DNA from: an uncultured virus (IMG/VR IMGVR_UViG_3300000255_000001)
Lineage: Duplodnaviria; Heunggongvirae; Uroviricota; Caudoviricetes
Length of the DNA stretch: 64,000 nucleotides
Strand: one strand, 5' to 3'
Virus record (IMG/VR): IMGVR_UViG_3300000255_000001
Shown: positions 6,996-51,691 of the stretch, piece by piece
Layout of the letters: each line of letters begins with the position of its first letter
How positions within the stretch are numbered: the stretch's first letter is position 1
The notes under the pieces: model-generated
Seen by the model: the letters and a program-made list of their open reading frames with translations, nothing else
The model's database searches: none
Told to the model about the DNA's origin: nothing
Translations under genes and position numbers: made by a program

Positions 6996-7024
6996 TTGAC
7001 ATTTTACCCAAATTGTTATACAAT
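6996..7024 (+). promoter_or_regulatory. sigma70 promoter, leaderless into ATG 7031
   Basis: TTGACA-17bp-TACAAT. Confidence 0.75.
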
Positions 7025-7030
7025 TATAAC

Positions 7031-18756: not shown

Positions 18757-18783
18757 GTATTATAATGCGAGTTAAATACTATC

Positions 18784-19305
18784 ATGCATAAACATCATAT
18801 TATACCAAAACATATGGGTGGCACTGATGATTCCTCTAATATAGTTAAGCTGTCTGTGGAAGATCATTCACTTGCTCATAAAGCACTATATGAACAACAC
18901 GGCCACTGGGAAGATAAACTTGCTTGGCGGGCGTTATCTGGTATTATTGCTAAAGAAGACGTTATACTTGAGCTACAACGCGAAGCAGGGCGTAGAGTAA
19001 AATCCCCTGAAGAGCGAGCAAAGTTAAGTAAAAGTTTAACGGGCAGAACAGCATCTTTAGAGCATAGGGCAAATATAAGTAAAGGCTTGAGACTCAAGCA
19101 TAGCCTACGCCCAACATCTGCTGAAACAAAAGCAAAGATGGTAAAGGCTCATACTGGATATAAACACACACCCGAAACAAAAGAAAAGCTCAGCCTAATT
19201 GCTTCAAAAAGAATACCATCAGAATCAACTAAGAAAAAAATCAGTGAATCAATGAAAGCCTATAGAAAATCGCAACGAGATGATTCATGCCCAAGCATAT
19301 TATAG
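18784..19305 (+). mobile_element. free-standing HNH/NUMOD3 homing endonuclease
   Basis: HKHHIIPKHMGGTD..SNIV.L...H..AH; HTPETKEKLS-type NUMOD3 repeats. Confidence 0.9.
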
Positions 19306-25414: not shown

Positions 25415-25939
25415 ATGAACGTCAAAATTAGCTTATCTGGCTTCTTTTGTAATACATGGCCAGATTGTGTTGTAGTTTGTAATGGTCATACAATATTCCA
25501 GGATAAAATTATCAATGATAATATAATAGATTTTACTATTGATTTTTCTGCTGACAATTTATTAACAATAGGTATGACTAATAAGTTAATGGGTGAAAAT
25601 AGTGTATATGATATTTTGTTAGATGCACATAATAATATTATCGAGGACAAGTATATTAAAGTAAATGATATACTTTTTGATGATGTTAGCGTGGATAACT
25701 TAATACATGAATTTGTTTTTATTAAAGATTCTAATGAAAAAATATCAACATCTGGTAATATTAATTATAATGGTAGTATACATATCCCATTTCAACAACC
25801 AATTTATGATTGGTTAATACAAGAAAAATATATTAAAAAAGAAATACAAGAAACTAATTATCAAGGTTTTGGTAGTTGGAATAATAAATTTAATTATGAT
25901 GTACAGGATTTAATTAAAAAGTTAGAAACAATTGTATGA
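25415..25939 (+). CDS. hypothetical protein
   Basis: TAAATA-N5-ATG; coupled to the radical SAM gene. Confidence 0.7.
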   Translation: MNVKISLSGFFCNTWPDCVVVCNGHTIFQDKIINDNIIDFTIDFSADNLLTIGMTNKLMGENSVYDILLDAHNNIIEDKYIKVNDILFDDVSVDNLIHEFVFIKDSNEKISTSGNINYNGSIHIPFQQPIYDWLIQEKYIKKEIQETNYQGFGSWNNKFNYDVQDLIKKLETIV

Positions 25940-27309
25940 AGATTGCACTTGTACAACTCCCCAAATATTCTATAGATAGACCCCCTATGACACTTGCTGT
26001 TTTAACCAGTGTTATTAAAAATAATTTTGATTATGATATTGAGTGCTATGATTTATCATTAAAACTTTATCAAGATATTGAAAGAGAAGATTTCTATGAG
26101 ATTGAAGACTATTTAGAACATAATATATATAAATCTTCTGTAGATATATTGACAGATAACTTTTCTATATATGCTATAGAGATAAAAAATTGTGATTTAA
26201 TAGCAATAAGTGTTTTTAGTGATGCATCATGTCGAGCATGTGAAGTGCTGTGTAAGGAATTAAAAAAGTATAATTGCAAAATTGTTATTGGTGGACAAGG
26301 TTTGGCTAACGAAAACTGGTGTAAAAATATGTCTGATGCCAAGTTAATAGATGATTATATAGTAGGGGAAGGAGAATATACATTTGTAAATTATTTAAAT
26401 GGTTTACAAGGACCTGGTATAAACAATCATAATAATGAACAAATAGATGATTTAGATTTATTGCCTATTCCTGATTATAGTTTATTAAATTTGAATGATT
26501 ATAATCTTAAGGAATTATATGTTACTGGTTCTCGTGGATGTGTACGCAAATGTACTTACTGTGATGTTCCTTTTTTATGGAAAAAATATAGATATCGCTC
26601 TGGCCAACATATTGCTAATGAGTTAATACGACATTATGAGAAAAGTGGTATTACTGGCTTCTGGTTTACTGATAGTTTGGTCAATGGCAGTCTTAAACAT
26701 TTTAGAGAATTTTGCTATGCTTTAGAGAAATACTATGAAAATAATAACGTAAGATTTACTTGGAAGGGACAGTATATTTTTAGACGTATGAATCAGTTAA
26801 ATGAAGAATATTTTAGAATGATATCAGCAGCTGGTGGTAGTGAATTTTATGTAGGATTAGAAACTGGTAGTGACAAAATACGTTGGGAAATGGATAAAAA
26901 ATTTACTAATGAAGATGCAACCTATCATTTAGAGATGTTTAAAAAATATAAAATAACTTGTTTATTGCTTATGATTAGTGGTTATATAACAGAAACAAAT
27001 CAAGATCATTTAGATACAATGGCTATGTTTAAAAAATGGCAGAAATTTGTTGCATCAGGAACAATTACTGGCATAGAGTTAGGCAATACGTTAAGTATAC
27101 TAGAAAATACTCCTTTAGAAGAAGAAAATTTAGAGTTTGTTATACCAGGTGACAAGCATAGTTGGCACATTAAAGATAATACATATCAAGTACGTGTTAG
27201 AAATAGGTTAGAAATAACTAAAGAAGCGATGAAGTATCATTGGCCAATTACCAATAATCGTTTTAGATTAAAAACCTTTATTGCTAAATTAGAGCAATAT
27301 TATATATAA
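25936..27309 (+). CDS. B12-binding radical SAM protein
   Basis: IVIGG/VGEGE cobalamin-binding domain; SRGCVRKCTYC; GLETGS. Confidence 0.9.
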   Translation: MKIALVQLPKYSIDRPPMTLAVLTSVIKNNFDYDIECYDLSLKLYQDIEREDFYEIEDYLEHNIYKSSVDILTDNFSIYAIEIKNCDLIAISVFSDASCRACEVLCKELKKYNCKIVIGGQGLANENWCKNMSDAKLIDDYIVGEGEYTFVNYLNGLQGPGINNHNNEQIDDLDLLPIPDYSLLNLNDYNLKELYVTGSRGCVRKCTYCDVPFLWKKYRYRSGQHIANELIRHYEKSGITGFWFTDSLVNGSLKHFREFCYALEKYYENNNVRFTWKGQYIFRRMNQLNEEYFRMISAAGGSEFYVGLETGSDKIRWEMDKKFTNEDATYHLEMFKKYKITCLLLMISGYITETNQDHLDTMAMFKKWQKFVASGTITGIELGNTLSILENTPLEEENLEFVIPGDKHSWHIKDNTYQVRVRNRLEITKEAMKYHWPITNNRFRLKTFIAKLEQYYI

Positions 27310-28643: not shown

Positions 28644-28672
28644 TTGACAATTTCTTAATATCTTAGTATAAT
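28644..28672 (+). promoter_or_regulatory. sigma70 promoter, leaderless into ATG 28680
   Basis: TTGACA-17bp-TATAAT. Confidence 0.85.
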
Positions 28673-28679
28673 TAAGAAT

Positions 28680-29639
28680 ATGTCATATTTAATATTTCAT
28701 AATGATAATATTAATTTTTTTACAATACAATTGCGGGAAGATCCATTTGTTGAAAAATGGGCAAATCATCTTCAATATATTTTAGATAATTATAATTGTC
28801 GCTTATACAAATCAAAATATCCAAGATATGAAAAATTAGAAGAAAATGAAATTAAACAACATGTAGATAATCTACACACCGCTATTAGAAATCTAAATAA
28901 TTTAGGCACTTGTTTTCCATTATTAAGAATAGATATTCCTTATATACGATTTTTAACTTTAGACTTAGATACACAGAAAATTTTAAATAAGTTACATAGA
29001 TATTTTACTACTGCTAATTGTTCTCTTAATGACATTGGTGATCAAGTAACTTATTCATATAAAGATAATAATTATTTTACAATTGATTATACCAAAAAAG
29101 AAGAATTTCGTAAACTCATACAAGACATAAATCAAATAGTACACAATTTAGATAATTCTATATTGTTGCCTAGAGTACGTGATGCAATAGACAATGATGA
29201 ATTAATAGAACAAGTAACAATAATGTTTGATCTATATGGAACAAGAGAACATAGTTTATTACCTAATACATTTAAGTTTATGGATAAAGAGGATGAATCA
29301 AGTATAATAGATAATGATGAATATGATGTGTGGATGGGAGTAGATTTGTTAGGTAAAGATTATATTACAGGATATTATAATCATGATGATCCGACAGAAT
29401 GGGATATTAAAACATTAAATTGCTATACAGGTAAGATGGAAATAATATTGGGGTCAAATACTATTCCTAAAATAATTAAAGGAGATAAGTTTCAAAATTG
29501 GTTGAAAGAATATGGTATGACATATATTCCAGCAATGTGTGGCATACCATTAGGTAAGGTAATATCTGGTAAAGATCTTCTAAACGATAAAACTTTACAA
29601 CAACAGATGTCAGTGTTTAATATTAAAATAGAGGAATAA
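28680..29639 (+). CDS. hypothetical protein, paralog of 10828..11883
   Basis: Shared motif blocks. Confidence 0.8.
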   Translation: MSYLIFHNDNINFFTIQLREDPFVEKWANHLQYILDNYNCRLYKSKYPRYEKLEENEIKQHVDNLHTAIRNLNNLGTCFPLLRIDIPYIRFLTLDLDTQKILNKLHRYFTTANCSLNDIGDQVTYSYKDNNYFTIDYTKKEEFRKLIQDINQIVHNLDNSILLPRVRDAIDNDELIEQVTIMFDLYGTREHSLLPNTFKFMDKEDESSIIDNDEYDVWMGVDLLGKDYITGYYNHDDPTEWDIKTLNCYTGKMEIILGSNTIPKIIKGDKFQNWLKEYGMTYIPAMCGIPLGKVISGKDLLNDKTLQQQMSVFNIKIEE

Positions 29640-36803: not shown

Positions 36804-36887
36804 GCCCCCGTGGCGGAACGGCAGACGCTGTTGACTTAAAATCAATTTCCGATAGGAGTGCTGGTTCGAATCCAGCCGGGGGCACCA
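36804..36887 (+). tRNA. tRNA-Leu(TAA)
   Basis: Cloverleaf with long variable arm; CCA encoded. Confidence 0.95.
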
Positions 36888-36894
36888 AATTAAT

Positions 36895-37239
36895 ATGAAA
36901 AGAATACTAACATTATATTTCACGTATAAAGGACTCAGTGGTTTTGAGATTGACCAATACGTGCCATTTACTACTGCGGTGGTAAATGATGATTCAGAAT
37001 ACGAATTCACACAACAATGGCTTGCTAATATTTTGGATGCTCGCCTTAAATGTGACCAGGATATATCAAGTTTTGTTATAACTGAAACAGAAGAAACTGA
37101 CGAAGAAGCCGCGAAGCAAACAGAAAACCTTGGTGTTTTTGTTGAGCACCAAAAGAAAGTAATCCCTAAACCCGAAGGTAACATTGTTACCGTAGATTTT
37201 GGAAAGAGAAATGGACCCGACGACACAAAAGATAATTGA
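36895..37239 (+). CDS. hypothetical protein
   Basis: Ends GNIVTVDFGK. Confidence 0.65.
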   Translation: MKRILTLYFTYKGLSGFEIDQYVPFTTAVVNDDSEYEFTQQWLANILDARLKCDQDISSFVITETEETDEEAAKQTENLGVFVEHQKKVIPKPEGNIVTVDFGKRNGPDDTKDN

Positions 37240-37444
37240 TCATTACAGAGCCATTAGCAAAGAGATGATGGATCGTGTTGCGGCAAGTCAGGTTAAAGTA
37301 GTTCCGCCTGAATTATTTGCAACATATGAATCAGGATCAGTGCAGGGACTTATGTATAAAGTATATAAGGATTGGAAGGATAATTTAACTTGTAATTGTC
37401 CGGGTTTTGTTTACAGGAGAAAGTGCAAGCATATAAGCAGTTGA
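37211..37444 (+). CDS. SWIM zinc-finger protein
   Basis: CNCPGFVYRRKCKH. Confidence 0.8.
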   Translation: MDPTTQKIIDHYRAISKEMMDRVAASQVKVVPPELFATYESGSVQGLMYKVYKDWKDNLTCNCPGFVYRRKCKHISS

Positions 37445-37452
37445 TTATATAC

Positions 37453-37481
37453 TTGACAAAATTAGTAAAATGCAGTATCAT
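37453..37481 (+). promoter_or_regulatory. sigma70 promoter, leaderless into ATG 37488
   Basis: TTGACA-17bp-TATCAT. Confidence 0.75.
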
Positions 37482-37487
37482 AATAGT

Positions 37488-37643
37488 ATGAAGAACCCTC
37501 GCCGCAAGACGAGATTCGCTCGTGTTCTGTTTGAACGCGATAACCCTTACTCTCAGAAAGTTGAACGTAAGAAAACCGCTTATACTCGTCGTGCCAAGCA
37601 CAATCACGAATATAAGCAAGAACTAGGAGACTATAATGTCTGA
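37488..37643 (+). CDS. 51-aa ArfA-like basic peptide (putative ribosome rescue/binding factor)
   Basis: MKNPRRKTRFARVLFERDNPYSQKVERKKTAYTRRAKHNHEYKQELGDYNV*; resembles ArfA [23 protein letters not shown]. Confidence 0.65.
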   Translation: MKNPRRKTRFARVLFERDNPYSQKVERKKTAYTRRAKHNHEYKQELGDYNV

Positions 37644-38022
37644 TCAAGGATTACTCAGTAGCGTTGGAACAGTTAATGCGATGAAAAAAGCGGAGGCCTT
37701 ACGTAAACAATATCATTCAGTCTTGCCAAGCATCAAGGAAGTTGGTGAAGTAGTGCGATGGGTTGGTGATTTGTCAGCCAAAGACAAAGAGCCCTTGCAT
37801 AGTGGTTCATTTCGTTGGATGTTTACTGATATTGCCACGTGGCAGAGAAAAGTAACCCCCAGTGAAAGTTATATTATGGTTGAGAGTGCTCTGGAAGAGA
37901 CTCGCTTTCCAACTTGGGGTGAAGCACGTGATTATTTGACTGCTGAAGATAACTTTCACGCCAAACGTTATTATAACGCAGAGGTTGAAGTGTCGTTGAT
38001 GGACGAAGACGAGGATGAATGA
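37636..38022 (+). CDS. hypothetical protein
   Basis: AGGAG RBS. Confidence 0.7.
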   Translation: MSDQGLLSSVGTVNAMKKAEALRKQYHSVLPSIKEVGEVVRWVGDLSAKDKEPLHSGSFRWMFTDIATWQRKVTPSESYIMVESALEETRFPTWGEARDYLTAEDNFHAKRYYNAEVEVSLMDEDEDE

Positions 38023-38176
38023 CTTATTTGATAAGTACGATGTAGTGGCTGATATGGTTGTTGTGTTTGGTGCTGACAAAGTGCTAGAAGCAATGGCCCA
38101 TTATTTCAGTGAAAAAGAAATCGACGAGTTGCATAGTTTTATATGCGATGAGTTCAATAAGAACCTTATGGGGTAA
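38015..38176 (+). CDS. 53-aa hypothetical protein
   Basis: MNDLFDKYDVVADM...NLMG* fills the intergenic gap. Confidence 0.55.
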   Translation: MNDLFDKYDVVADMVVVFGADKVLEAMAHYFSEKEIDELHSFICDEFNKNLMG

Positions 38177-38179
38177 GTT

Positions 38180-38689
38180 ATGATTATAACCACAAATGGT
38201 TATAACACACAAAGTAAAAGGTTTAGAACTTTGTTAGAGGATTCCGCAGAGTTTTATGCCCAGAAGATGATGAGGTCTGACTTATGTAGAAACATACATT
38301 TGGATATCGTCGTAACGAAGGATTTAGCGAAAAAAGAAGGAGTAACGCAGATATATGGTTATTGCCATATATCAGATTATAGATTATCTCGTCCACGTGA
38401 ATTTGAAATTGAGCTAGATGCTAAAAAGCGTGTAACGAAAATGTTGCTAACATTAGCACATGAAATGACACATTTGAAGCAGTTTGCAAGGCTACAATTG
38501 CGAAATTATGATAATGGTAGCACAAAGTGGAAAGGTGAAACAGTTGGTCGTAAGAGGGAAAAGAAAATAGGTCATCGCCAACTTCCATGGGAAGTTGAGG
38601 CCTATAAGAAAGAGAAGGAATTATTTCTAGATTTGGTAAATAATACTGACATACTAGACGATTATATGGATGGAATTAAGAGAAATTGA
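38180..38689 (+). CDS. zinc metallopeptidase-like protein
   Basis: TLAHEMTHLKQ (HExxH), PWEVEA. Confidence 0.8.
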   Translation: MIITTNGYNTQSKRFRTLLEDSAEFYAQKMMRSDLCRNIHLDIVVTKDLAKKEGVTQIYGYCHISDYRLSRPREFEIELDAKKRVTKMLLTLAHEMTHLKQFARLQLRNYDNGSTKWKGETVGRKREKKIGHRQLPWEVEAYKKEKELFLDLVNNTDILDDYMDGIKRN

Positions 38690-38921
38690 TTTAGAATATC
38701 TCTTTATGTTAAATCGACAACAACAGGCAGAACAACTTTTTAATAAGTGGTGGTTATGCAAAATAAACGACAAATACTTTGCTGGGCAGTTTGACTATCC
38801 TAGTGGTCCATGGGGCGGTGGCGGTGGTGTAATCCACTTTAATCCAGTGCCATGGAATCCAAGTGGTCATACTTTTACGGTAATGACAGGTTGGCAAGGT
38901 CTTTGGGAAATACTCAACTAA
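38670..38921 (+). CDS. hypothetical protein
   Basis: ORF track; operon context. Confidence 0.5.
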   Translation: MELREIDLEYLFMLNRQQQAEQLFNKWWLCKINDKYFAGQFDYPSGPWGGGGGVIHFNPVPWNPSGHTFTVMTGWQGLWEILN

Positions 38922-38940
38922 TAACAAGAGACTAAAAAAA

Positions 38941-39891
38941 ATGAAACTTATTTCAGGTAACTCGAACCTGGAGTTGGCAAAACGAATATCCCAGTTTGCC
39001 GGTGTACCGCTAGTTAAGGCAAACATAGGGAGGTTTGCCGACGGCGAGGTTAGAGCAGAAATTCACGAAAACATCAGAGGTAAAGACGCATTCGTAATAC
39101 AAAGTACTAGCACCCCAGTTAATGATAATGTAATGGAATTATTAGTTATGATTGACGCGCTCAAAAGAGCAAGTGCAAGGCGCATAACAGCAGTAATGCC
39201 ATATTTTGGTTACGCGAGGCAAGACAGAAAAACAATGAGTAGAGCACCAATTAGTGCAAAACTCATGGCAGATTTAATAACAACGGCAGGCGCAGATCGT
39301 GTATTAACACTCGATCTACACGCAGGTCAAATCCAAGGATTTTTTAATATCCCAGTAGACACTTTGATAGCACGACCTATCCTAGTCAATGATTTGCGGA
39401 AAAGAATAGATACAGAGAATCTTGTATTTGTCAGTCCAGACGCTGGCGGTACAGAACGAGCAAGAAGTTATGCTAAGAAGTTTGATACAGAGATTGCTGT
39501 AATCGATAAAAGACGCCCAGAACCGGGCGCAAGTGAGGTTATGAATGTTGTTGGTGACGTTAAGGATAAACAATGTATTATTGTTGACGACATCATAGAC
39601 AGTGGAGGCACTCTAGCCAACGCGGCCACGGCTTTGTTGGAACAAGGTGCTATTAAAGTAAGAGCATATATTACGCACGGAGTACTGACGCCTAAGGCAG
39701 ATGAAAAAATTGGTAATAGCGATTTAACTGAATTGATAGTAACAGATTCCATTAAAATTAGTAGGGAATCTAGTATAGCCCAACTCAGGTATGTAACAAT
39801 TGCTCCACTAATTGGACGAGCGATAGTAAATGTTCATAATGAAGAAAGTGTAAGTAATCTACTTATAGAGGATAATTGGGATATATTATGA
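38941..39891 (+). CDS. prs: ribose-phosphate pyrophosphokinase
   Basis: FADGE, PYFGYARQDRK, DLHAGQIQGFF, SPDAGG, IVDDIIDSGGT. Confidence 0.97.
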   Translation: MKLISGNSNLELAKRISQFAGVPLVKANIGRFADGEVRAEIHENIRGKDAFVIQSTSTPVNDNVMELLVMIDALKRASARRITAVMPYFGYARQDRKTMSRAPISAKLMADLITTAGADRVLTLDLHAGQIQGFFNIPVDTLIARPILVNDLRKRIDTENLVFVSPDAGGTERARSYAKKFDTEIAVIDKRRPEPGASEVMNVVGDVKDKQCIIVDDIIDSGGTLANAATALLEQGAIKVRAYITHGVLTPKADEKIGNSDLTELIVTDSIKISRESSIAQLRYVTIAPLIGRAIVNVHNEESVSNLLIEDNWDIL

Positions 39892-40355
39892 AGAAGTATC
39901 AAAAATTCCTAGCGATAGGTTTGGCGTCAATATCATTGATAGGCTGTGCCAATATGACTCGCGAAGAGTCAGGAAATATGATAGGTGCATTGCTGGGCGG
40001 CGCATTAGCATATGAACTTGCCGGAGACAGTTCAAATAAAGAAATTTGGGTTGCGACTGGTTTAATTGGTGGTGCTCTTGCAGGAGGCCATTATGCTGTA
40101 TTGACGCAGAAAGGCCAACTTATGCATCAATCTGCGATTCATTCCAACTTGGAAACTGCTCAAGATAATTCAACAACGTCTTGGAACAATCCTAACAACA
40201 ATGAGCATGGCTCAGTTACCGTTAGAAATACTAACGTGAGCAATGGAACTCCTTGTAGGGAATTTACCCAAACAATTTATGTTGGTGGTAAAGCAGTCGA
40301 AGGATATGGCACCGCTTGTAGAATGGCAGATGGGAGTTGGAAAATCATACAATAA
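39888..40355 (+). CDS. 17-kDa surface-antigen-like glycine-zipper lipoprotein
   Basis: Lipobox LIGC, glycine zipper, WNNP, CREFTQ...GTACRMADGSWKI. Confidence 0.85.
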   Translation: MKKYQKFLAIGLASISLIGCANMTREESGNMIGALLGGALAYELAGDSSNKEIWVATGLIGGALAGGHYAVLTQKGQLMHQSAIHSNLETAQDNSTTSWNNPNNNEHGSVTVRNTNVSNGTPCREFTQTIYVGGKAVEGYGTACRMADGSWKIIQ

Positions 40356-40363
40356 TTAACAAC

Positions 40364-40438
40364 GCACCGGTCGTCTAATGGTTAGGACATCGGCCTTTCA
40401 CGCCGACAACCGGGGTTCGATCCCCCGTCGGTGTACCA
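40364..40438 (+). tRNA. tRNA-Glu(TTC)
   Basis: Cloverleaf; CCA. Confidence 0.95.
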
Positions 40439-40454
40439 AAGAGGAAATAAAATA

Positions 40455-40724
40455 ATGGCAGATATATATCAAAAAGTAGAAAGAAGCACACAAAGTCTTG
40501 CAATGAAAATTGCTAATGCTGGTAAAGCAAGATTAAAGGGCATGGCTCGTCAATTGTATCTTGAAGGGTTCGCCAGTTTAAAAAACTGCGAAAAAGTTGC
40601 TCAGAATGGTAATCAAGGCAGAGGATTTTATATTGCTAAAGTAGTAAACAAGGAATTTGCTGAGAAAGAAAAAGAGAACGAAAAGAAGAAGCGAAATAAG
40701 GGCAAGAAAACACAGAGCAAATAA
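40455..40724 (+). CDS. basic hypothetical protein within the tRNA cluster
   Basis: GAGG RBS; Lys-rich tail. Confidence 0.6.
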   Translation: MADIYQKVERSTQSLAMKIANAGKARLKGMARQLYLEGFASLKNCEKVAQNGNQGRGFYIAKVVNKEFAEKEKENEKKKRNKGKKTQSK

Positions 40725-40727
40725 TCT

Positions 40728-40805
40728 CTCGGTGTAGGAAAGTCTGGTTAATCCGCTTCGTTTGGGACGAAGAAATCGCTGGTTCAACTCCAGCCACCGA
40801 GACCA
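40728..40805 (+). tRNA. tRNA-Pro(TGG)
   Basis: Cloverleaf; CCA. Confidence 0.92.
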
Positions 40806-40810
40806 TATTG

Positions 40811-40894
40811 GGACAGGCTGAACAATGGTGAGTTCACCGGATTGTAAATCCGACGCCTCAGGCTGTGCTGGTTCGAGCCCAGCCCTGTCCACCA
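40811..40894 (+). tRNA. tRNA-Tyr(GTA)
   Basis: Cloverleaf with long variable arm; CCA. Confidence 0.92.
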
Positions 40895-40897
40895 AAT

Positions 40898-40971
40898 TGG
40901 GACATAGTGTAACGGTAGCACTACAGATTTTGATTCTGTCAGTTGGGGTTCGAATCCCTGTGTCCCAGCCA
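40898..40971 (+). tRNA. tRNA-Gln(TTG)
   Basis: Cloverleaf; CCA. Confidence 0.92.
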
Positions 40972-40972
40972 T

Positions 40973-41048
40973 GGGCCTGTAACTCAGCGGTGAGAGTGCC
41001 GGTCTTATATGCCGGTGGTCGATGGTTCGAATCCATCCAGGCCCACCA
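40973..41048 (+). tRNA. tRNA-Ile(TAT)
   Basis: CCGGT-ct-TAT-at-GCCGG anticodon arm; CCA. Confidence 0.9.
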
Positions 41049-41053
41049 AAATA

Positions 41054-41090
41054 GGTTAGTTCTGATAAATAGTCCGAGGGAGGACTAACT
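41054..41090 (+). promoter_or_regulatory. RBS-sequestering hairpin with a late promoter in its loop
   Basis: GGTTAGTTCT/AGGACTAACT 10-bp stem; TAAATA at 41066; GGAGG overlaps the 3' arm. Confidence 0.7.
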
Positions 41091-41091
41091 A

Positions 41092-41571
41092 ATGATAGGA
41101 ACATGTAAAGTTTGTAGTAAAGAGTTTAAATATTTCCCTAGTCAATCTAAAGGACAATATTGCTCAAATAAGTGCCAAGGTGCGTTAAGGGCAGAAGTTA
41201 CTAAAGCGAAGTGGCGTGTCCATTACGAAGAAGGTGCTGATATAGGGAGACCGAGACAGCGTCAGATGTTAACAGAAGATCATGGGTATAATTGTAGTGT
41301 ATGTAAGTTAAGTGAATGGCAAGATAAGCCTATTACATTACAAGTAGATCATATAGATGGTAATGCTGATAACAACGATAAGAAAAATTTACGACTTATA
41401 TGTCCAAATTGCCATAGCCAAACAGATACATTTGCTGGAGGTAATAGAGGACAAGGTCGTTGGAGTAAGGGTTTGAAAGACAGATACAAAGGACAATCTT
41501 TTACGCATGGTAAGATCCGGGTCCGGCCGGGATCCTTCGGGAACAAGAATGGCTCCCTCTCCACCAAATAA
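41092..41571 (+). mobile_element. HNH endonuclease inserted in the tRNA cluster
   Basis: CKVC..CSNKC; CSVC; LQVDHIDG...NL..ICPNCHSQT. Confidence 0.9.
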
Positions 41572-41581
41572 ATAATATTAC

Positions 41582-41655
41582 GCCTCTATAGTTAAACGGT
41601 ATAACAATACCCTTGTAAGGTTTAGTTGTTGGTTCGATTCCATCTAGAGGCTCCA
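41582..41655 (+). tRNA. tRNA-Thr(TGT)
   Basis: Cloverleaf with one anticodon-stem mismatch; CCA. Confidence 0.85.
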
Positions 41656-41664
41656 ATTTTTTAT

Positions 41665-41738
41665 GGGGGATTGGTGAAATGGGATCACGTGGCCTTTGCA
41701 AGGCTAAATTAAGAGTTCGACTCTCTTATTCTCCACCA
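41665..41738 (+). tRNA. tRNA-Ala(TGC)
   Basis: G3:U70 identity pair; CCA. Confidence 0.92.
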
Positions 41739-41741
41739 GAT

Positions 41742-41816
41742 GGGCCCTTAATTCAGCGGTAGAATGCTGTCTTTACATGGCAGAAGTCGGAAGTTCGAAT
41801 CTTCCAGGGCCCACCA
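41742..41816 (+). tRNA. tRNA-Val(TAC)
   Basis: Cloverleaf; CCA. Confidence 0.92.
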
Positions 41817-41821
41817 AATTC

Positions 41822-41897
41822 GGTCCCATGGTGTAATTGGTTAACACGCTAGCCTGTCACGCTGGTATTAGGGGTTCGAGTCCCCTTGGGACCGCCA
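41822..41897 (+). tRNA. tRNA-Asp(GTC)
   Basis: Cloverleaf; CCA. Confidence 0.93.
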
Positions 41898-41901
41898 ATT
41901 T

Positions 41902-41976
41902 TCCCTAGAGCGCGCAAGGTGTGCGAGGTGACTGTTAATCACTTGTGGGTTGGTTCGATTCCAACCTAGGGAGCCA
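41902..41976 (+). tRNA. tRNA-Asn(GTT)
   Basis: Cloverleaf; CCA. Confidence 0.88.
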
Positions 41977-41979
41977 AAT

Positions 41980-42054
41980 GCGGGTGTAGCTCAGCGGTAG
42001 AGCCTCTCGTTGCCAACGAGAATGTCGTCAGTTCGAATCCCACCCTCTCCGCCA
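41980..42054 (+). pseudogene. chimeric tRNA: Gly(GCC) 5' part joined to a Ser-type 3' end
   Basis: GCGGGTG...GCC anticodon...GTCAG TTCGAAT then CCCAC CCTCTCC GCCA; acceptor and T stems do not pair. Confidence 0.8.
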
Positions 42055-42065
42055 TAAATATTGAT

Positions 42066-43058
42066 ATGAGTTATTCTACAATTATAAAATATATTCCTGA
42101 AGAATATACACAATATCTTATTCAATATCACAAAGAAAATAAACATAATTATGATATCTTTGATTGGGAAGAAGATGACCTTTTTTTACAGATGTGGGGA
42201 TTAACTGAAAAAAGTAAAATATCTGGCCGTAGTAAAATATCTGGCCGTTACGGTGCTACAAATTGGCAATCCAATCATGCTATGGATGATCCACTAGCAC
42301 GCTCATCAGCCGGTGTCTTATCAATTGGAAGCATCATTTGGACGTTCGTGCGGCGGATTACGTCACCAATTCCTACAAGAAAAGGTGAGGTATATGACAA
42401 ATGCGAGATTGAAATGAATCTAATAGTAAAGAAAATTTTAGATTTATTTAACGTAGAATATACTGAATTTGAAGCATTTATTAAAACTTCTTATTTACCA
42501 ATTTCTTTACACGTTGATGCGAATCGTTATGAAGGGCCCACTACTTCACATAATAATTGGGATGGTAAAGTACCTTCTCAGCGTCAGGATGGAAGTGATT
42601 CAAAACAAGGAATATCTATTATAATACCACTAACATTTAATAAAGATATCCATACTATAATATTTAAAAATATCGCAGAAGATAATGATTATGTTCAAGA
42701 TTTTCAAGATGTAGTTTCTGGTCTTTATGAAGAACCCAATCCCAAAGAGCACCAAGCGTTGACGCGAGCCATTGGCGGGCCTGATAGAGCCAATCTTCCA
42801 ATATATGAACATAATTTAGATTATAGAGATTATATTCCCAATATTTGGAATAAACAAATGATTGAATTTTATCTAGATCCAGAAAATAAACCATATGCTA
42901 GGGGTGATCAGATATTAGATTATCTTGAAGTAGATGAGATAATCCCGTGGGAGAAAAATGTTGCTTGTATGTTTGATAAACAAAAAATGCATATGAGTAA
43001 TAATTTTAAAAAACTTGGTATAGAAAGTAAAGATTTTCTTTTAATACATACACACTAA
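42066..43058 (+). CDS. putative 2OG-Fe(II) oxygenase-like protein
   Basis: LHVD, IIIPL, FDxxKMHMS; TAAATA-N5-ATG. Confidence 0.5.
   Translation: MSYSTIIKYIPEEYTQYLIQYHKENKHNYDIFDWEEDDLFLQMWGLTEKSKISGRSKISGRYGATNWQSNHAMDDPLARSSAGVLSIGSIIWTFVRRITSPIPTRKGEVYDKCEIEMNLIVKKILDLFNVEYTEFEAFIKTSYLPISLHVDANRYEGPTTSHNNWDGKVPSQRQDGSDSKQGISIIIPLTFNKDIHTIIFKNIAEDNDYVQDFQDVVSGLYEEPNPKEHQALTRAIGGPDRANLPIYEHNLDYRDYIPNIWNKQMIEFYLDPENKPYARGDQILDYLEVDEIIPWEKNVACMFDKQKMHMSNNFKKLGIESKDFLLIHTH
42213..42248 (+). repeat. 18-bp in-frame tandem duplication
   Basis: AGTAAAATATCTGGCCGT x2 (SKISGR SKISGR). Confidence 0.95.
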
Positions 43059-43750
43059 TGGATTCAAAAATACAAGAGTTTTACTTACAGCACAAAGATA
43101 AAGTATGGAATTATGAACGAATTCCAGACAATAAAACTCCTAGGCATTGGGCAACTTGGGAAAGCAAATATCCGTGGTTAAAACTTATGATAGATGCTCC
43201 GTTTAAGGAAATGCTTGAAGAAGCCAAAAATATAAAGCATTTATTTGTTGAGCATAGAACAGATTATTCACAAGGATGGAAAAGTGTATGCATTCATGGC
43301 ATTGGTGATCATGTTACATCTATACCTGAAGATCATGGATTTAGCAAAGATGCAAAAAGAGATTGGACCAATGCCTCTGTAGAATGCCCAATTACAACGA
43401 ATTATTTTAAAAATGAATATCCAATTAATGTTTATGATAGAATTAGATTTATGTTAATTGAACCAGGTGGGTATATTGATGTTCATGTTGATGGAAGTAG
43501 AGATGATAATCCTAGTCGTGCTGTTAATATGAGTCTTAATAATCCTGATAAGTGTTTTTTAATAACTGAAAATGGAATAGTTCCTTACGATAATAATGGT
43601 AGCGTTTTTTATTTTAATATTGCTTATGAGCATGGGGTAATAAATAATAGCAATAAAGATAGATATCATATTATTGTACATGGTGCTGAAACAGTAGAGT
43701 TTGAAGATATTGTATTAAAAAGTTATGAAGATCAAGTTATTAATCGATAA
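43058..43750 (+). CDS. aspartyl/asparaginyl beta-hydroxylase-like 2OG-Fe(II) oxygenase
   Basis: RIRFMLIEPGGYIDVHVD...HGVINNSNKDRYHIIVHG. Confidence 0.85.
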   Translation: MDSKIQEFYLQHKDKVWNYERIPDNKTPRHWATWESKYPWLKLMIDAPFKEMLEEAKNIKHLFVEHRTDYSQGWKSVCIHGIGDHVTSIPEDHGFSKDAKRDWTNASVECPITTNYFKNEYPINVYDRIRFMLIEPGGYIDVHVDGSRDDNPSRAVNMSLNNPDKCFLITENGIVPYDNNGSVFYFNIAYEHGVINNSNKDRYHIIVHGAETVEFEDIVLKSYEDQVINR

Positions 43751-44921
43751 AATAAATGATAAAAACTGCTCTAAAATTGCACAAAGATTGTATGAGTTTA
43801 CAAGATTCTGTGGCCAAGGATTTTTTGAGGATGATTTTAGTCATGATTATTATGATCATGATGCAAGCCTCGACATTGAAAATTACGATTATATTTTTGT
43901 AATTAAAGCAGGGCATTTGTTTTGGGATAGATTAATTTTTGATCAATGTTTAGAAGAAAAGATAACAAAACTTTCTAATGAACCTGTGGTTGGAGATGAG
44001 AATTGGTTTTTAATTGATTGTAAAAAGATTAATACAAAAATATTCAATAAGGCCTTGAGGAGCGAGCGGGCCCGCTCACTCCTTAAAGAAGAATATAATA
44101 TTAAGCCGTTTAGTGACTCTATAAACGAACAAATAATATTTTCATTTCCAGAAACAATGTATCCTTACATCGAAGAATTAATGTTAGATCTCAAAAGTAA
44201 TGTTCCTGATAAATTAAAACCTTTTGCGGATGAATTGAAGATGTCAGCTAGAACTTTAGAAAGATGTTATTATATTCTAAACACAGAACATGTTAATATA
44301 ACCAAAACCTTTGAAAATAAATTTGATAATTATATTGGAGTCTGTGGTGGGTTAAAGACATATATTTTATTAGGACAAGAGTATTTTAGTGAAAATACCA
44401 ATGTTTTAATGTTTGATATAAGTCCCGCGGCGATTAGATGGCAACAATTTCTTAAAGAAACTTGGAATGGTGAGGTGGAACATTTATCATCAATAGCACA
44501 ACTGTTTAAAGAAGAGGTGTATAAGTTGGGTTTACCTTTTAATCCTATCGGTCGTCGAGCTGATGGAAGAATGACCAAGAGCGAGCGTGCTCATCATCTT
44601 AATATCGACTTATGTAACTATTTAGAAGATAATAACATTGATTCTCAGCAACTAAAACACAACTGGAAACGTTTTCATAATATGAATGTTACTTATGAAC
44701 AAGTAGATCTTTTTAATACTGCGGATGTCGATAAATTAATTCAACATACGAAACTTGGAACTAATACTTATTTTTGGCTCAGTAATTGTTTTCAAATGGA
44801 TAGACTTATATTTAAATATGGTACAAAGTGGACTTGGGATTCAGAAGCTTCTTTTAAAAAAGACTTTAGAAGTAAATCATATACACCTTGTACTTTTGAT
44901 GTTGATGATGAAATAACCTAA
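43725..44921 (+). CDS. hypothetical protein (possible degenerate methyltransferase fold)
   Basis: YYILNTE, GVCGGLK, MFDISPAA, FWLSN. Confidence 0.6.
   Translation: MKIKLLIDKINDKNCSKIAQRLYEFTRFCGQGFFEDDFSHDYYDHDASLDIENYDYIFVIKAGHLFWDRLIFDQCLEEKITKLSNEPVVGDENWFLIDCKKINTKIFNKALRSERARSLLKEEYNIKPFSDSINEQIIFSFPETMYPYIEELMLDLKSNVPDKLKPFADELKMSARTLERCYYILNTEHVNITKTFENKFDNYIGVCGGLKTYILLGQEYFSENTNVLMFDISPAAIRWQQFLKETWNGEVEHLSSIAQLFKEEVYKLGLPFNPIGRRADGRMTKSERAHHLNIDLCNYLEDNNIDSQQLKHNWKRFHNMNVTYEQVDLFNTADVDKLIQHTKLGTNTYFWLSNCFQMDRLIFKYGTKWTWDSEASFKKDFRSKSYTPCTFDVDDEIT
44055..44086. repeat. 32-bp GC-rich loopless palindrome inside a CDS
   Basis: TTGAGGAGCGAGCGGG|CCCGCTCACTCCTTAA; 14 of 16 positions Watson-Crick paired. 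Confidence 0.9.
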
Positions 44922-44938
44922 TCATAATAAATATTGCT

Positions 44939-45091
44939 ATGAAAATAGTTGAGTTAATGGAAGCAGTTGGTATAGGACGCGGCTTAATGGAACTAATTAC
45001 TACTGGTGAGTACCAAACTATCAATTTATCGTGCTTCAACCCCACTCGAGTGTTAAATAAAGAAAAGCGGTTAGAACCTTACGTTATTTAA
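44939..45091 (+). CDS. 50-aa peptide with internal-protein-like N-terminus
   Basis: MKIVELME|AVG; TAAATA-N5-ATG. Confidence 0.5.
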   Translation: MKIVELMEAVGIGRGLMELITTGEYQTINLSCFNPTRVLNKEKRLEPYVI

Positions 45092-45105
45092 ATTGGAGCG
45101 AAATA

Positions 45106-45555
45106 ATGCCTAGACTATACTGGCGCCAGAATAATTTTCTTGAGCGTCTAGAGCCTATGGATATGTGGCCACCGGGAACAAAGTGTGAAGACGATCCTGT
45201 TAGGCCAAATATAGGAGAAAGAGATAGATTTTTATATGGCAGAGAGGTATATGCTCTGTGGACACATGCCATTTGTTGTGTAGCATTTTGTGATGAAGTG
45301 CCAAGAACAGAAAAGCAATTAACAACTATGGCGGGATTAGACATAGCAGTTTTTTATACTGTGTGGAGTTACAGAAAAGGTAAAGGTAGTGAAATTTTAA
45401 ATTTACTATTACCATATTTTCAAGAGAAAAAACCTTGGGTTAAAAGATTTGTAACATTATCTCCCAAAACAGAAATGGCACACAATTTCCATATTAAAAA
45501 TGGTGCGGAAGAATTTCGTAGAAATAAACTAACCGTAAATTACGAATACAAATAA
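45106..45555 (+). CDS. phage protein, GNAT-like
   Basis: DDPVRP, FYTVWSY.KGKG, RFVTLSPKTEMA..FH.KNGA. Confidence 0.7.
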   Translation: MPRLYWRQNNFLERLEPMDMWPPGTKCEDDPVRPNIGERDRFLYGREVYALWTHAICCVAFCDEVPRTEKQLTTMAGLDIAVFYTVWSYRKGKGSEILNLLLPYFQEKKPWVKRFVTLSPKTEMAHNFHIKNGAEEFRRNKLTVNYEYK

Positions 45556-45556
45556 T

Positions 45557-45641
45557 GCCCGCGTGGTGAAATTGGAATACACGATTGTTTTAGGGGCAAT
45601 TGCCGCAAGGCGTGCTGGTTCGAGTCCAGCCGCGGGCACCA
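45557..45641 (+). tRNA. tRNA-Leu(TAG)
   Basis: Cloverleaf with long variable arm; CCA. Confidence 0.92.
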
Positions 45642-45646
45642 AAAAT

Positions 45647-45738
45647 GGTGGGTTGGCAGAGCCCGGTTGAATGCACCAGACTTGAAATCTGGCATACGTG
45701 TAAGCGTATCGAAGGTTCGAATCCTTCACCCACCGCCA
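45647..45738 (+). tRNA. tRNA-Ser(TGA)
   Basis: Cloverleaf with long variable arm, G73; CCA. Confidence 0.95.
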
Positions 45739-45772
45739 ACTTAATCAATAAATATTTTTAGAGGATCAAATT

Positions 45773-46285
45773 ATGAATGAAGATACATTATATAGCTCAA
45801 ATTGGGACAATATGTGGGACTGCCGAACTGCTTCTGGTGAAAAATTTAATTTACAAGAAGAATGTGAAGGTAAAGTTCTATTAGTAGTAAACACAGCAAG
45901 TGAATGTGGTTGGACACGACATTATGAACCCTTACAAACACTTTATGAAGAATTGAAAGAGAAAGGATTAATAGTTGTTGCTTTTCCATGTAATCAATTT
46001 GGAGAACAAGAACCTGGTACAGATGAGGAAATTTTAGAATTTTGTCAAACAAAATACAACGTAACTTTTCCTGTAATGCAAAAAGGTGATGTTGAAGGAG
46101 ATAACTGTCAACCACTTTATCAATGGCTTATAAGTGATCATGGTGAAGGGAAAAGTTGGATTGGCTGGAATTTTCATAAATTTTTAATTGACCGAACAGG
46201 CAATGTTGTCGGTAATTGGGAAATGGAAGAAGAAATGGAACCAGTTATAGAAGCGGTTCAGTCATGCCTGCAGAAATCAAATTAG
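45773..46285 (+). CDS. glutathione peroxidase (Cys type)
   Basis: VNTASECG, FPCNQFGEQEPG, WNFHKFLIDR. Confidence 0.95.
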   Translation: MNEDTLYSSNWDNMWDCRTASGEKFNLQEECEGKVLLVVNTASECGWTRHYEPLQTLYEELKEKGLIVVAFPCNQFGEQEPGTDEEILEFCQTKYNVTFPVMQKGDVEGDNCQPLYQWLISDHGEGKSWIGWNFHKFLIDRTGNVVGNWEMEEEMEPVIEAVQSCLQKSN

Positions 46286-47094
46286 ATTGGAATAAAGTAT
46301 TAAACTGTTCTGCTATAATCAATAACAATATTGATAATGTTTATTTTGAATATATTTGGCATAGATATATTGACAATCAAGATATAGAGTATAAGGACTG
46401 GAAACCTTCCGGTTTAACATTTGATAGTCATTGGCTTGTTAAATACTATCTTAATTTTATACATTGTAAAGATCTATTAAAAGACTATAATGTTTTAGAT
46501 TTGGGATGTGGGATTCCTTTTTATGCTAAATGGTTTTTAAATTCTGGTGCAAAATCTTATGATGGTATAGATTTAGATTTTAATAGAATTATTATTGGTG
46601 ATCAATTATTAGAATTACAAAATCTTAAAGATAAAGCAAATATTATTTCTGATGATATAGAAAGTTATGTGTATAAACCACAGTTTGTGGACTCGCGTCC
46701 GTGGATACCGCAATATTTAAAATCATATGATATTGTCTATCTAATAGAGTCACTATATTATATACATAATCAGCACGATTTACTAACTACGATTAAGCAA
46801 AATATTAAACCAAAGAACTTAATTATAGAAAGTGTTGTAGTAGATGATATATTAGAACATCCAGAAGGAATTATTCGAGTAAAATATAGTTCAGAAGATT
46901 CAAAAGACTATGATGGGGTTAAATCAGACTTGCCTAGGTTAAAGATGCATAGTAGTCGTAAAGCATATGAAAAACTTTTTGAATCTACTGGTTGGAAAAT
47001 TAAAGAATATTATGACTTTAAAAACTATAAGGGTCCTGATTTTCCAAGTGAAAATATTGCAAATGGCCGTAAGATGTTCTATGTTTTAGAATAA
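46264..47094 (+). CDS. class I SAM-dependent methyltransferase
   Basis: VLDLGCG, GIDLD, YDIVY, IIES. Confidence 0.85.
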   Translation: MPAEIKLDWNKVLNCSAIINNNIDNVYFEYIWHRYIDNQDIEYKDWKPSGLTFDSHWLVKYYLNFIHCKDLLKDYNVLDLGCGIPFYAKWFLNSGAKSYDGIDLDFNRIIIGDQLLELQNLKDKANIISDDIESYVYKPQFVDSRPWIPQYLKSYDIVYLIESLYYIHNQHDLLTTIKQNIKPKNLIIESVVVDDILEHPEGIIRVKYSSEDSKDYDGVKSDLPRLKMHSSRKAYEKLFESTGWKIKEYYDFKNYKGPDFPSENIANGRKMFYVLE

Positions 47095-48407
47095 AAATCA
47101 GCAAATAATTCGTAGTATTCTGGCATAGTATTTTTAAAACTTTGTTTTCGATATCCGTCTATTTTGCCATTTATATCCCAAAATGTATCTCTATGTCGAT
47201 CATAATCATCAGGAGTATAATCTAAAGTATTAATTACTGTTTCCATATCTCGTGTATACATATGTTTTACAGCATGTGCGCCATTTTTTCCAGTTGGCGG
47301 ATCATAGTTTAATAACTTTTTTCTAATTACTTCTTTAATAGGTTCTGGAATGTACATAATGTTACATTCCTTTTTATCATATACTCTGTTAGCAAATGAC
47401 ATAGAAACATTGCCAACACCATTGATATTAGCCAGTTTCTCCTCTTCTGATCGTTGAAAAATAGTAAACTCATTTTCTAGCCAGCCTTTTTCATGTACAT
47501 ATTGACAAATTTCAGGAAGATAGAATACATTTAATATTTGAGTTGTAATTGAAAAATCAGGGAATATTGAAGGATGATTCATTGATGCTTTTAAAAACTT
47601 TTCTATATTTTCTTCAATTTGGTCCCATTTGCTTAAATGTCTAATATAATCATTATGTTTACCAATAGCATCAAAACTTAATCCTAATACAGCATGTTTG
47701 AATTTTCCTAGTTTTTCAACTATTTCATTTGAGAAAATTGTACAATTTGTATGTATACCTAATACTTGTTCTTTTGCTACATCATTTTCTATACTCTTAT
47801 CAATTATTTCATATGTAAAAGGATTTAGGAGTGGTTCTCCACCATATAAGTCAATAACAGCAAATCCTTTATTCCAGTTAGATAAAACACGACGGAGTTC
47901 TTCATTACTTTCATGATAACTCAGTTCATAACTTTCCCATTTTTTAAGCCATTCTTTATATGGTTTTTTTATATTTTTTATTTTGTAAGAGTCTTTATAC
48001 CATTGAACACTAGTTGATGGATGACATGATCTGCAAGCATTATTACATTTATTACCGTGTTTTAATACTAAAACTCTGGGTTGATCTTCCATTGGTTCAA
48101 TACCAGCAAATACTTCATTTAACATTGTTCTATGACTTTTTGTGCCACTTTCTTCATTTACTCTACATTGTTTACAACCTTCCGGCCAGATACCTTGTTT
48201 ATGTTGTTCTAATAAACGATCCCGCATATCATTATTCCATGCTTTTTCCAAACTATCATGCTGTAGAATAATCATATGACTAGGTTCATTCTCTCCATGA
48301 TTTGTCATTAAATGATAATCTAGTAATTGGTTACAGGGAGAAATATGGCCGCCCATATGTCCTGTTAAGCCTAATTGTGCGAGTTTACATACTATTTCTT
48401 TTGGCAT
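47079..48407 (-). CDS. radical SAM protein with N-terminal twitch/SPASM-like domain
   Basis: CNNACRSC, YGGEPL, CKQC; TAAATA-N5-ATG. Confidence 0.9.
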   Translation of the reverse strand: MPKEIVCKLAQLGLTGHMGGHISPCNQLLDYHLMTNHGENEPSHMIILQHDSLEKAWNNDMRDRLLEQHKQGIWPEGCKQCRVNEESGTKSHRTMLNEVFAGIEPMEDQPRVLVLKHGNKCNNACRSCHPSTSVQWYKDSYKIKNIKKPYKEWLKKWESYELSYHESNEELRRVLSNWNKGFAVIDLYGGEPLLNPFTYEIIDKSIENDVAKEQVLGIHTNCTIFSNEIVEKLGKFKHAVLGLSFDAIGKHNDYIRHLSKWDQIEENIEKFLKASMNHPSIFPDFSITTQILNVFYLPEICQYVHEKGWLENEFTIFQRSEEEKLANINGVGNVSMSFANRVYDKKECNIMYIPEPIKEVIRKKLLNYDPPTGKNGAHAVKHMYTRDMETVINTLDYTPDDYDRHRDTFWDINGKIDGYRKQSFKNTMPEYYELFADFYSKT

Positions 48408-48452
48408 ACCCGTATTTATGAATTATACCTATTCTATGAATAAATATTTGTT

Positions 48453-48529
48453 TGGTCCATAGCTCAGTTAGTTAGAGCGCCGCTCTGATAAAGCGGAGGT
48501 CCCTGGTTCGAATCCAGGTGGACCAACCA
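48453..48529 (+). tRNA. tRNA-Ile(GAT)
   Basis: Cloverleaf; CCA. Confidence 0.93.
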
Positions 48530-48549: not shown

Positions 48550-49104
48550 ATGCTCGGATTAAGAACATTAGTATTAAACGCATCATATATGCCAATTTCT
48601 TTATTGCCATTACATACTATTCCCGTGGAAGATGCTGTTAATAGAATATTTAACGATAGTTGTCATGTAGTTTTTAGTTATAATAGATGGATTCAAACAC
48701 CTAATTTACATATGAAATGGCCTAGTGTTATTGCTCGTAATAGTTATGTTAATGTCAAGTCTATTATGAAGTTAAAACGAGAATCTCTATACTATAGAGA
48801 TCACGGCATATGTGTATATTGTGAACAGCCGTTAACTGTAAGAGAAGTAACCTATGATCACGTTATCCCCAAACGTCTAGGTGGTCGAAAAGTGTGGGAA
48901 AATGTAGTTTCGGCATGTTCACGATGTAATTCACTTAAAGGAAATCATAATCCAGTAGGCATATGGAAACCAAAATGGAAGCCATATAAGCCGAATTACT
49001 TTCAATTATTAGCAAGACGCAAGAAATTTCCTATTATGATTGATCATGAGAGTTGGAAACAGTTTTTTGGTGATTGGGAAAGTGACATTATTATTAGGAC
49101 ATAA
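48550..49104 (+). CDS. HNH endonuclease (McrA-like)
   Basis: LVLNASY.P, RDHGICVYC, TYDHVIP..GG..WENVVSACSRCN..K. Confidence 0.9.
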   Translation: MLGLRTLVLNASYMPISLLPLHTIPVEDAVNRIFNDSCHVVFSYNRWIQTPNLHMKWPSVIARNSYVNVKSIMKLKRESLYYRDHGICVYCEQPLTVREVTYDHVIPKRLGGRKVWENVVSACSRCNSLKGNHNPVGIWKPKWKPYKPNYFQLLARRKKFPIMIDHESWKQFFGDWESDIIIRT

Positions 49105-51548: not shown

Positions 51549-51691
51549 ATCCAAATACAGTAGTTACCCGCATTTGGTGGACAGTGATAGTTGTTTCAAT
51601 GTGGGTTGGCATTGTTGTTGTAGCAGATCTTAACTGGCCCAGTCATATGGGTGAGCAAGGCGCATTGCTGAGGGCAATTGGCCTATTGTAA
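51545..51691 (+). CDS. 48-aa membrane peptide coupled to the pilin gene
   Basis: GTG start; IWWTVIVVSMWVGIVVV; TAATG overlap with pilin. Confidence 0.5.
   Translation: MNPNTVVTRIWWTVIVVSMWVGIVVVADLNWPSHMGEQGALLRAIGLL

Follow-up and report, generated by a model that had tools for sequence, protein, structure and literature searches.

We investigated a 51-codon open reading frame (ORF) in a 64,000-nucleotide stretch of DNA from an uncultured Caudoviricetes virus (IMG/VR record IMGVR_UViG_3300000255_000001; hereafter, the window). The ORF is a conserved gene, its product is akin in sequence to the ribosome-rescue factor ArfA, and it lies directly behind a near-consensus sigma-70 promoter. The mini-protein very likely falls within the lineage covered by ArfA and DUF7230, where it appears to be a divergent, shortened member of a short-loop, DUF7230-like ArfA branch common in phages. 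As for its role, we lean, with modest confidence, towards a constitutive, probably leaderless, release-factor-dependent ribosome-rescue factor.

A conserved gene and its promoter

The features, in positions of the window, are as follows.

37453..37458, plus strand: −35 hexamer TTGACA, identical in the related copies L122, L123 and L124
37476..37481, plus strand: −10 hexamer TATCAT, following the −35 hexamer after a 17-nt spacer
37488..37643, plus strand: ORF of 51 codons plus stop (ATG 37488, TGA 37641-37643), encoding the ArfA-like mini-protein (P0002)
37515..37601, plus strand: core (F10 to H38), collinear with ArfA residues about 15-45 by hhalign and alignments
37602..37640, plus strand: acidic, fast-evolving tail NHEYKQELGDYNV, from substitution counts and an alignment read by eye
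37636..38022, plus strand: next ORF, 128 aa, of no known family; its ATG overlaps the mini-protein stop, and it is syntenic in the relative L135

The original prediction had placed the feature at 37453..37643. The end stands, whereas the start does not: the −35 hexamer begins at 37453, and the 51-aa ORF, which is present, opens at 37488. Its product is MKNPRRKTRFARVLFERDNPYSQKVERKKTAYTRRAKHNHEYKQELGDYNV (51 residues), and a 57-aa alternative form would begin at an in-frame ATG at 37470, within the promoter spacer. Residues 1-38 contain 14 K/R and 3 D/E, and the last 13 contain 1 K/R and 3 D/E. The core comprises VLF (13-15), P-Y (20-21), QKVE (23-26), Y32, R34 and K37-H38. The ORF is closed by its own TGA 13 residues past KH, in keeping with the predicted lack of a long C-terminal tail, and this stop overlaps the start of the next ORF (ATGTCTGA, 37636), ahead of which AGGAG stands at 37625-37629. 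In databases, copies of the mini-protein carry the label unnamed or hypothetical protein.

A word-indexed search over 5.8 billion proteins yielded close homologues in 18 clusters (80-96% identity), and a HMMER search of 1.84 billion representatives with the close-homologue profile added 26 remote relatives at E <= 1e-3, all of 39-103 residues. The gene occurs on five IMG/VR contigs, one of them 322,647 bases long (CheckV completeness 90%), with one copy per record; IMG/VR loci for three queries numbered 5, 1 and 21. When compared with an 84%-identical copy (L123), DNA identity was 88% in the ORF, 70% in the upstream 300 nt and 79% in the next ORF. Codons 1-34 differed by four synonymous and no non-synonymous changes, and codons 35-51 by three synonymous and eight non-synonymous changes. 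The ORF is therefore more than a chance frame, and the gene is under purifying selection among close relatives; we regard it as almost certainly real. That it is no gene, merely a chance ORF behind a promoter serving the downstream 128-aa gene, is highly improbable: its ATG lacks a Shine-Dalgarno sequence, but the purely synonymous changes in codons 1-34, a conservation outdoing both flanks and the 26 relatives at the protein level contradict it.

The sigma-70 promoter predicted directly before the ORF was recovered: TTGACA-17-TATCAT matches 11 of the 12 consensus positions, and 6 nt (AATAGT) separate the −10 box from ATG 37488, with no Shine-Dalgarno sequence in front of this ATG. Sigma-70 transcripts usually begin about 7 nt past the −10 box. 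Based on the spacing between −10 box and ATG, and on the conservation of that spacing, the mini-protein mRNA is probably leaderless; transcription from the near-consensus promoter would start at or beside the AUG. Both hexamers are unchanged in L123, and the spacer differs at 4 of 17 bases in L123 and L124. The syntenic relative L135, with neighbour proteins about 44-56% identical, has the arrangement TAGACA-17-TATAAT, again with 6 nt to the ATG of the homologous gene. Other family members have ordinary leaders.

Gene callers translate the −10 box as the Tyr-His of an N-terminal extension. This extension is present in 16 of the 19 rows of the close-homologue alignment, where the −10 codons read Y-H in 15 and Y-N in one, and the positions after Tyr-His/Asn are variable. 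The invariant columns of the 18 close clusters start at the Met of 37488, and the extensions upstream of it differ in length and residues.

Twelve sites in the window match the promoter consensus at 11 or more of its 12 positions, and three of them have the ATG of a substantial ORF 6-7 nt past the −10 box (7031..7501, 28680..29639 and the mini-protein). The promoters of the former two lie at 6996..7033 and 28644..28682 (plus strand; 11/12 and 12/12 matches), and this phage may make leaderless early mRNAs habitually. RNA contigs from four marine RNA runs, surveyed over 36900-38700, leave 37388-37692 uncovered, and such contigs cannot show transcript starts. Near-identical contigs were found in RNA libraries labelled marine or seawater.

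Kinship with ArfA and DUF7230

The peptide alone matches little. Pfam returned no family at E <= 10 for P0001 or P0002, NCBIfam gave no match, the close-homologue profile found none among PDB sequences at E <= 10, and PHROGs yielded just E 1.8 and 2.8. Likewise, nothing was found by the ArfA model PF03889 over six frames of the near-identical record G001, by tblastn of P0002 and P0154 on GenBank phages, or by megablast of the region on phages. The alignment with E. coli ArfA that had been drawn by eye was reproduced by BLASTP against the protein from NC_000913 (18.5 bits, 9/25 identities, one 3-residue gap), with an E of 0.003 that is a single-comparison value. Against an unfiltered HMM of 25 diverse ArfAs, P0002 scored 8.0 bits, which 3 of 2000 shuffles of the peptide reached; this is meaningful for one pre-stated comparison and far too weak for a database claim. 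The mini-protein lies below the PF03889 gathering score (25.5 bits) and has no match to DUF7230 (PF23876; gathering score 27 bits), to which 15 of the 19 close homologues match, at about 14 bits. Furthermore, K34, G35, K36 and G37, invariant in 25/25 ArfAs, are absent from it (3-residue gap). Because its scores are below the Pfam cut-offs and one invariant ArfA feature is missing, we do not place it as a formal member of either family.

With the 26 relatives, the family consensus is R-x(4)-L-F-x(2)-D-x-P-[FY]-x(2)-[KR]-V-E-x(2)-K-x(2)-Y-x-R-K-x-K-H. In the 30-member alignment, L14, F15, P20, Y32, R34 and K37 are invariant, P-[FY] is found in all 30 members, and the [KR]-V-E stretch has K or R in 28 and V-E in 21. 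Searched singly, 19 of the 30 members match DUF7230 (best E 6.8e-6, 26.6 bits versus the cut-off of 27), and these matches fall on VE-x-K-x-x-Y-x-R-K-x-K-H. Three members match PF03889, all below the cut-off; the best is P0162 (20.3 bits, E 3.7e-4, profile positions 20-44 of 44). Among the 30, no further Pfam family turns up repeatedly. The nearest ESM-Atlas clusters carry DUF7230, three members of two relative clusters bear the IMG product name "stalled ribosome alternative rescue factor ArfA", and the PHROGs matched by relatives are phrog_2701, phrog_6310 and phrog_18092.

ArfA sequences were collected with the Pfam model (matching in 85 of 251 genomes from the order around Escherichia, and in 4 of a class sample of 300), and 25 were aligned. 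An HHpred-type comparison bore out the predicted likeness to the ArfA profile: hhalign of the 30-member family against the 25 diverse ArfAs gave 83% probability (P 9e-6, score 32.5, 25 columns), and against 17 enterobacterial ArfAs 82% over 37 columns. Column-permuted controls peaked at 14 over 198 runs and at 17 over 197 runs, so that none of the 395 exceeded 17, and reversed profiles scored 10.7 and 12.9. The close-homologue profile alone reached only 31% against ArfA. In the converse direction, the family profile, run over six frames of one whole Escherichia genome, had its best match within arfA (E 0.0098). Over the 251 genomes, 85 of which carry ArfA, it gave E <= 0.1 in five, of which two were at arfA and the remaining three were one 60-aa bacterial ORF and two apparently spurious places; this run missed the Escherichia genome G002, in which the single-genome search had matched arfA. 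The 60-aa ORF, at L160 159..341 (plus strand; G334:C72, a genome of the Escherichia order) and missed by the Pfam ArfA model, begins much as ArfA does (KKNIKDSAIKDFAK) and ends in a short-loop tail, NKKKYTRKQKH.

A phage protein bridges the two families. On GenBank phages, tblastn of P0144 gave one weak match (E 0.3), in Pseudoalteromonas phage J2-1, whose 51-aa protein ATN93434.1 (MF988720) is deposited as "alternative ribosome-rescue factor A". It reaches 41.3 bits against the ArfA model, whose cut-off is 25.5, and 28.6 bits against DUF7230, whose cut-off is 27, and since it passes both on overlapping residues, DUF7230 and ArfA are overlapping descriptions of one lineage. The protein starts like a canonical ArfA (HDHGRGKTKDNKLKQIVTSDLFRTRVE) and ends like the mini-protein family (RDKTKYRRKKKH); in its tail, RVERDKTKYRRKKKH, the loop is likewise 3 residues shorter, and BLASTP against P0002 gave 9/18 identities without gaps (E 3e-4). 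Similar to the mini-protein, it is phage-borne, 51 aa long, closed by its own stop codon and short in the loop (RVERDKTKY-RRK-KKH), whereas it retains the canonical N-terminal half of ArfA (HDHGRGKTKDNKLKQIV) and passes the ArfA cut-off. DUF7230 itself is uncharacterised, and no mention of it was found in the literature. The two bacterial DUF7230 genes compared, from 2 of 401 Pseudomonadota genomes, carry NPVAK...F+x+V..DKRK, which is ArfA-like, and differ from the mini-protein in this N-terminal half, NPVAK....

Phage ArfA as such is already known, from the GenBank product name in J2-1 and from the annotation and expression of gp30 in Pelagibacter phage HTVC027P (PMC12753301). According to the available excerpt of that paper, gp30 is named ArfA and is highly expressed early and late in infection. 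It is a phage-encoded ArfA-type mini-protein as well, but of a different branch, with the KKGRGS loop kept and no KH motif. BrfA of B. subtilis and ArfT of Francisella, compared by description only, are alike in being small, basic and release-factor-dependent in rescue (PMC8012679, in part). The same excerpt gives the KH motif as common to BrfA and ArfA and regards BrfA and ArfT as independently evolved; BrfA is set apart, again by description, in being translated from a non-stop mRNA. According to PMC8012679, ArfA and BrfA systems are species-adapted. ArfT is a member of another broad family, as excerpted from PMC6514570. Among listings and abstracts, we found neither published work testing the function of a phage ArfA nor an account of the short-loop family.

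The kinship could also be deceptive. The mini-protein may be small and basic but serve a different purpose, for example by binding RNA or DNA or by associating with the ribosome in a non-rescue role, its likeness to ArfA being convergent or too old to inform on function. In favour of this, the alignment spans only 25-37 columns and is K/R-rich, the peptide itself falls below threshold everywhere, and the reciprocal genome search was weak (5/251 genomes, 2 at arfA). However, the composition-preserving controls never came near the real score, the hydrophobic, aromatic, QxVE, Y-x-R and KH positions are collinear, and the bridging J2-1 protein passes both Pfam cut-offs. We consider this explanation rather unlikely.

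Residue-level comparison and proposed function

The joint alignment is collinear over almost the whole active part of ArfA. In the available excerpt of PMC8012679, ArfA residues 15-24 fold into a short helix located at the decoding centre, the hydrophobic contacts of F25 are RF2-specific, Q27-E30 adds a strand to the sheet of RF2 domain II/IV, and the mRNA channel is occupied by the C-terminal part with the KH motif; the first 14 residues become ordered only upon RF2 opening. At the sequence level, QKVE of the mini-protein (residues 23-26) stands opposite the QRVE strand Q27-E30, Y21 opposite F25, and Y32-T-R-R-A-K37-H38 opposite the basic KH tail, while VLF stands where ArfA has A-L-L. MAFFT sets RRKT-RFARVLF opposite KGQIKDNAIEALL with few identities, and the position aligned to A18, which is variable in the family, is a beta-branched Val. 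The N-terminal block of ArfA (G-x-I-x-D-N) has no clear counterpart, only nine residues of the mini-protein standing in its place. The shorter loop that had been proposed is indeed 3 residues shorter in the alignments. Past KH, an aromatic-Glu pair can be traced by eye (KHGNRGNWE in ArfA versus KHKHEYE or KHQNREYE in the phage family), and the mini-protein tail retains KH-x3-Y(-x0-2)-E where ArfA has W-E.

Like E. coli ArfA (YhdL, PF03889), the mini-protein is small and basic and has a collinear hydrophobic segment, an aromatic residue at F25 (Y21), QKVE for QRVE, and the Y-x-R-K-x-K-H tail followed by aromatic-Glu. Unlike it, the mini-protein lacks the K-G-K-G loop, shows no recognisable match to the N-terminal 14 residues, is phage-borne and stays below the Pfam cut-off. 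The two also differ in expression: E. coli ArfA comes from a non-stop mRNA that is under repression by trans-translation, whereas the phage gene has its own stop codon. The ORF contains no non-stop device in the form of a 3' terminator; the sole terminator-like site, at codons 8-12, consists of a weak 5-bp stem and a poor T run, and the RNA fold of the ORF has z = −2.67.

The rescue mechanism that we infer would run as follows. The basic Y32-x-R-R-x-K37-H38 segment would thread the mRNA entry channel, left empty when a ribosome stalls at the 3' end of a truncated message. QKVE and Y21 would dock a class-I release factor through beta-strand addition and hydrophobic contact, with the VLF segment replacing the A18-L19-L20 helix of ArfA, and the docked release factor would then hydrolyse the peptidyl-tRNA. 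The gene's own stop codon and near-consensus promoter point to constitutive, early production, so that the mini-protein would not be subject to the tmRNA-dependent repression by which bacterial ArfA is kept low. A complex prediction with E. coli RF2 and the family alignment scored 0.06 against a mark of 0.32, in a run without controls, and speaks neither for nor against binding.

An alternative is a ribosome-binding mimic, which would fill the empty mRNA channel and might bind a release factor while triggering no hydrolysis; it may thereby block the access of tmRNA-SmpB or host ArfA, or park ribosomes. Conservation is highest in the half that would bind the channel (Y-x-R-K/R-x-K-H), the activation region at the ArfA N-terminus cannot be recognised, and Val occupies the A18 position, at which A18T, in the excerpt of PMC8012679, binds and recruits RF2 without activating it. 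Against this, the QKVE strand and the aromatic residue at the F25 position are also conserved, although a pure channel plug would not need them, the phage invests in translation (EF-G and 15 tRNAs; see below), and other phages carry an ArfA with a canonical N-terminus. We regard the mimic as unlikely and retain the release-factor-dependent rescue factor as the preferred reading. Its benefit would be that ribosomes stranded on decaying or cleaved mRNAs are recycled during infection by a phage that carries EF-G and at least 15 tRNAs.

Genomic setting and implications

The window encodes a full-length EF-G at 22367..24466 (plus strand; six Pfam domains, including GTP_EFTU, D2, EFG_III, EFG_IV and EFG_C; phrog_6880, "translation elongation factor"). 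Copies of the phage lineage are 77-93% identical and occur on contigs of up to 224 kb, and the nearest named cellular EF-Gs, at about 71% identity, belong to mixed phyla, so that they give no pointer to the host. A T4 gp9/10-like baseplate protein likewise reaches only distant cyano- and pelagi-myophages. Fifteen tRNA genes, all on the plus strand, lie within 36804..48529, with HNH endonuclease ORFs at 41092..41571 and 48550..49104. A trio of PrkA kinase, DUF444 and SpoVR (16816..22308, plus strand), with very strong Pfam scores, resembles the bacterial yeaG-yeaH-ycgB stress operon. The window also encodes an ATP-dependent DNA ligase and a PRPP synthetase, as well as a type IV pilin with the N-methylation motif (51691..52635), a glutathione peroxidase (45773..46285), an Asp/Asn beta-hydroxylase-like protein (43058..43750) and two radical-SAM proteins (25936..27309 and 47079..48407).

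The neighbour genes of the mini-protein are common only to the syntenic relative L135. Just upstream, an 81-aa ORF (37199..37444, plus strand) with no match in Pfam or PHROGs ends in C-x-C-x(9)-C-x-H, which we take to resemble a SWIM-type zinc finger. Downstream, a 169-aa HExxH protein (38180..38689, plus strand) has a weak match to the DUF6782 metallopeptidase and strong matches to phrog_10499 and phrog_16532, neither with a known function; in L135 this protein and the mini-protein are syntenic.

Among three or four related records, neither an RF-1-domain protein nor SmpB was found, and tmRNA matches in related records were sub-threshold only. In an 84%-identity relative, L125 (G553:C1:106873-107132) has a full-model Rfam tmRNA match of 40.1 bits, below the gathering score of 47, and ARAGORN calls tmRNAs in the 84%-identity relative, with odd tag peptides. 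The 322-kb near-identical record gave no tmRNA match.

A broader reading, which we put forward tentatively, is that short-loop ArfA mini-proteins form a large unnamed phage family, constitutively produced, and that together with EF-G and tRNAs they make up a translation-maintenance kit against ribosome-stalling defences. Here, production would be from a leaderless early transcript, and the kit would free ribosomes stranded where host or phage nucleases or abortive-infection RNases cut messages, as a counter-measure to such defences and not as mere housekeeping. The loss of KGKG may be an adaptation to a different release factor or to non-gammaproteobacterial ribosomes.

ArfA is described, in the excerpt of PMC8012679, as confined to part of the beta- and gamma-proteobacteria. 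On the evidence of its sequence, this giant marine phage probably supplies its own rescue factor. If so, viruses would bring their own release-factor-dependent rescue system, the KGKG loop would be dispensable, and the ArfA lineage, including DUF7230 and three PHROGs of unknown function, would be much wider than annotated. A 51-residue peptide is also an easily synthesised probe of the minimal needs of release-factor recruitment, and the rescue reading offers a testable hypothesis of why phages with large translation gene sets would need ribosome recycling.
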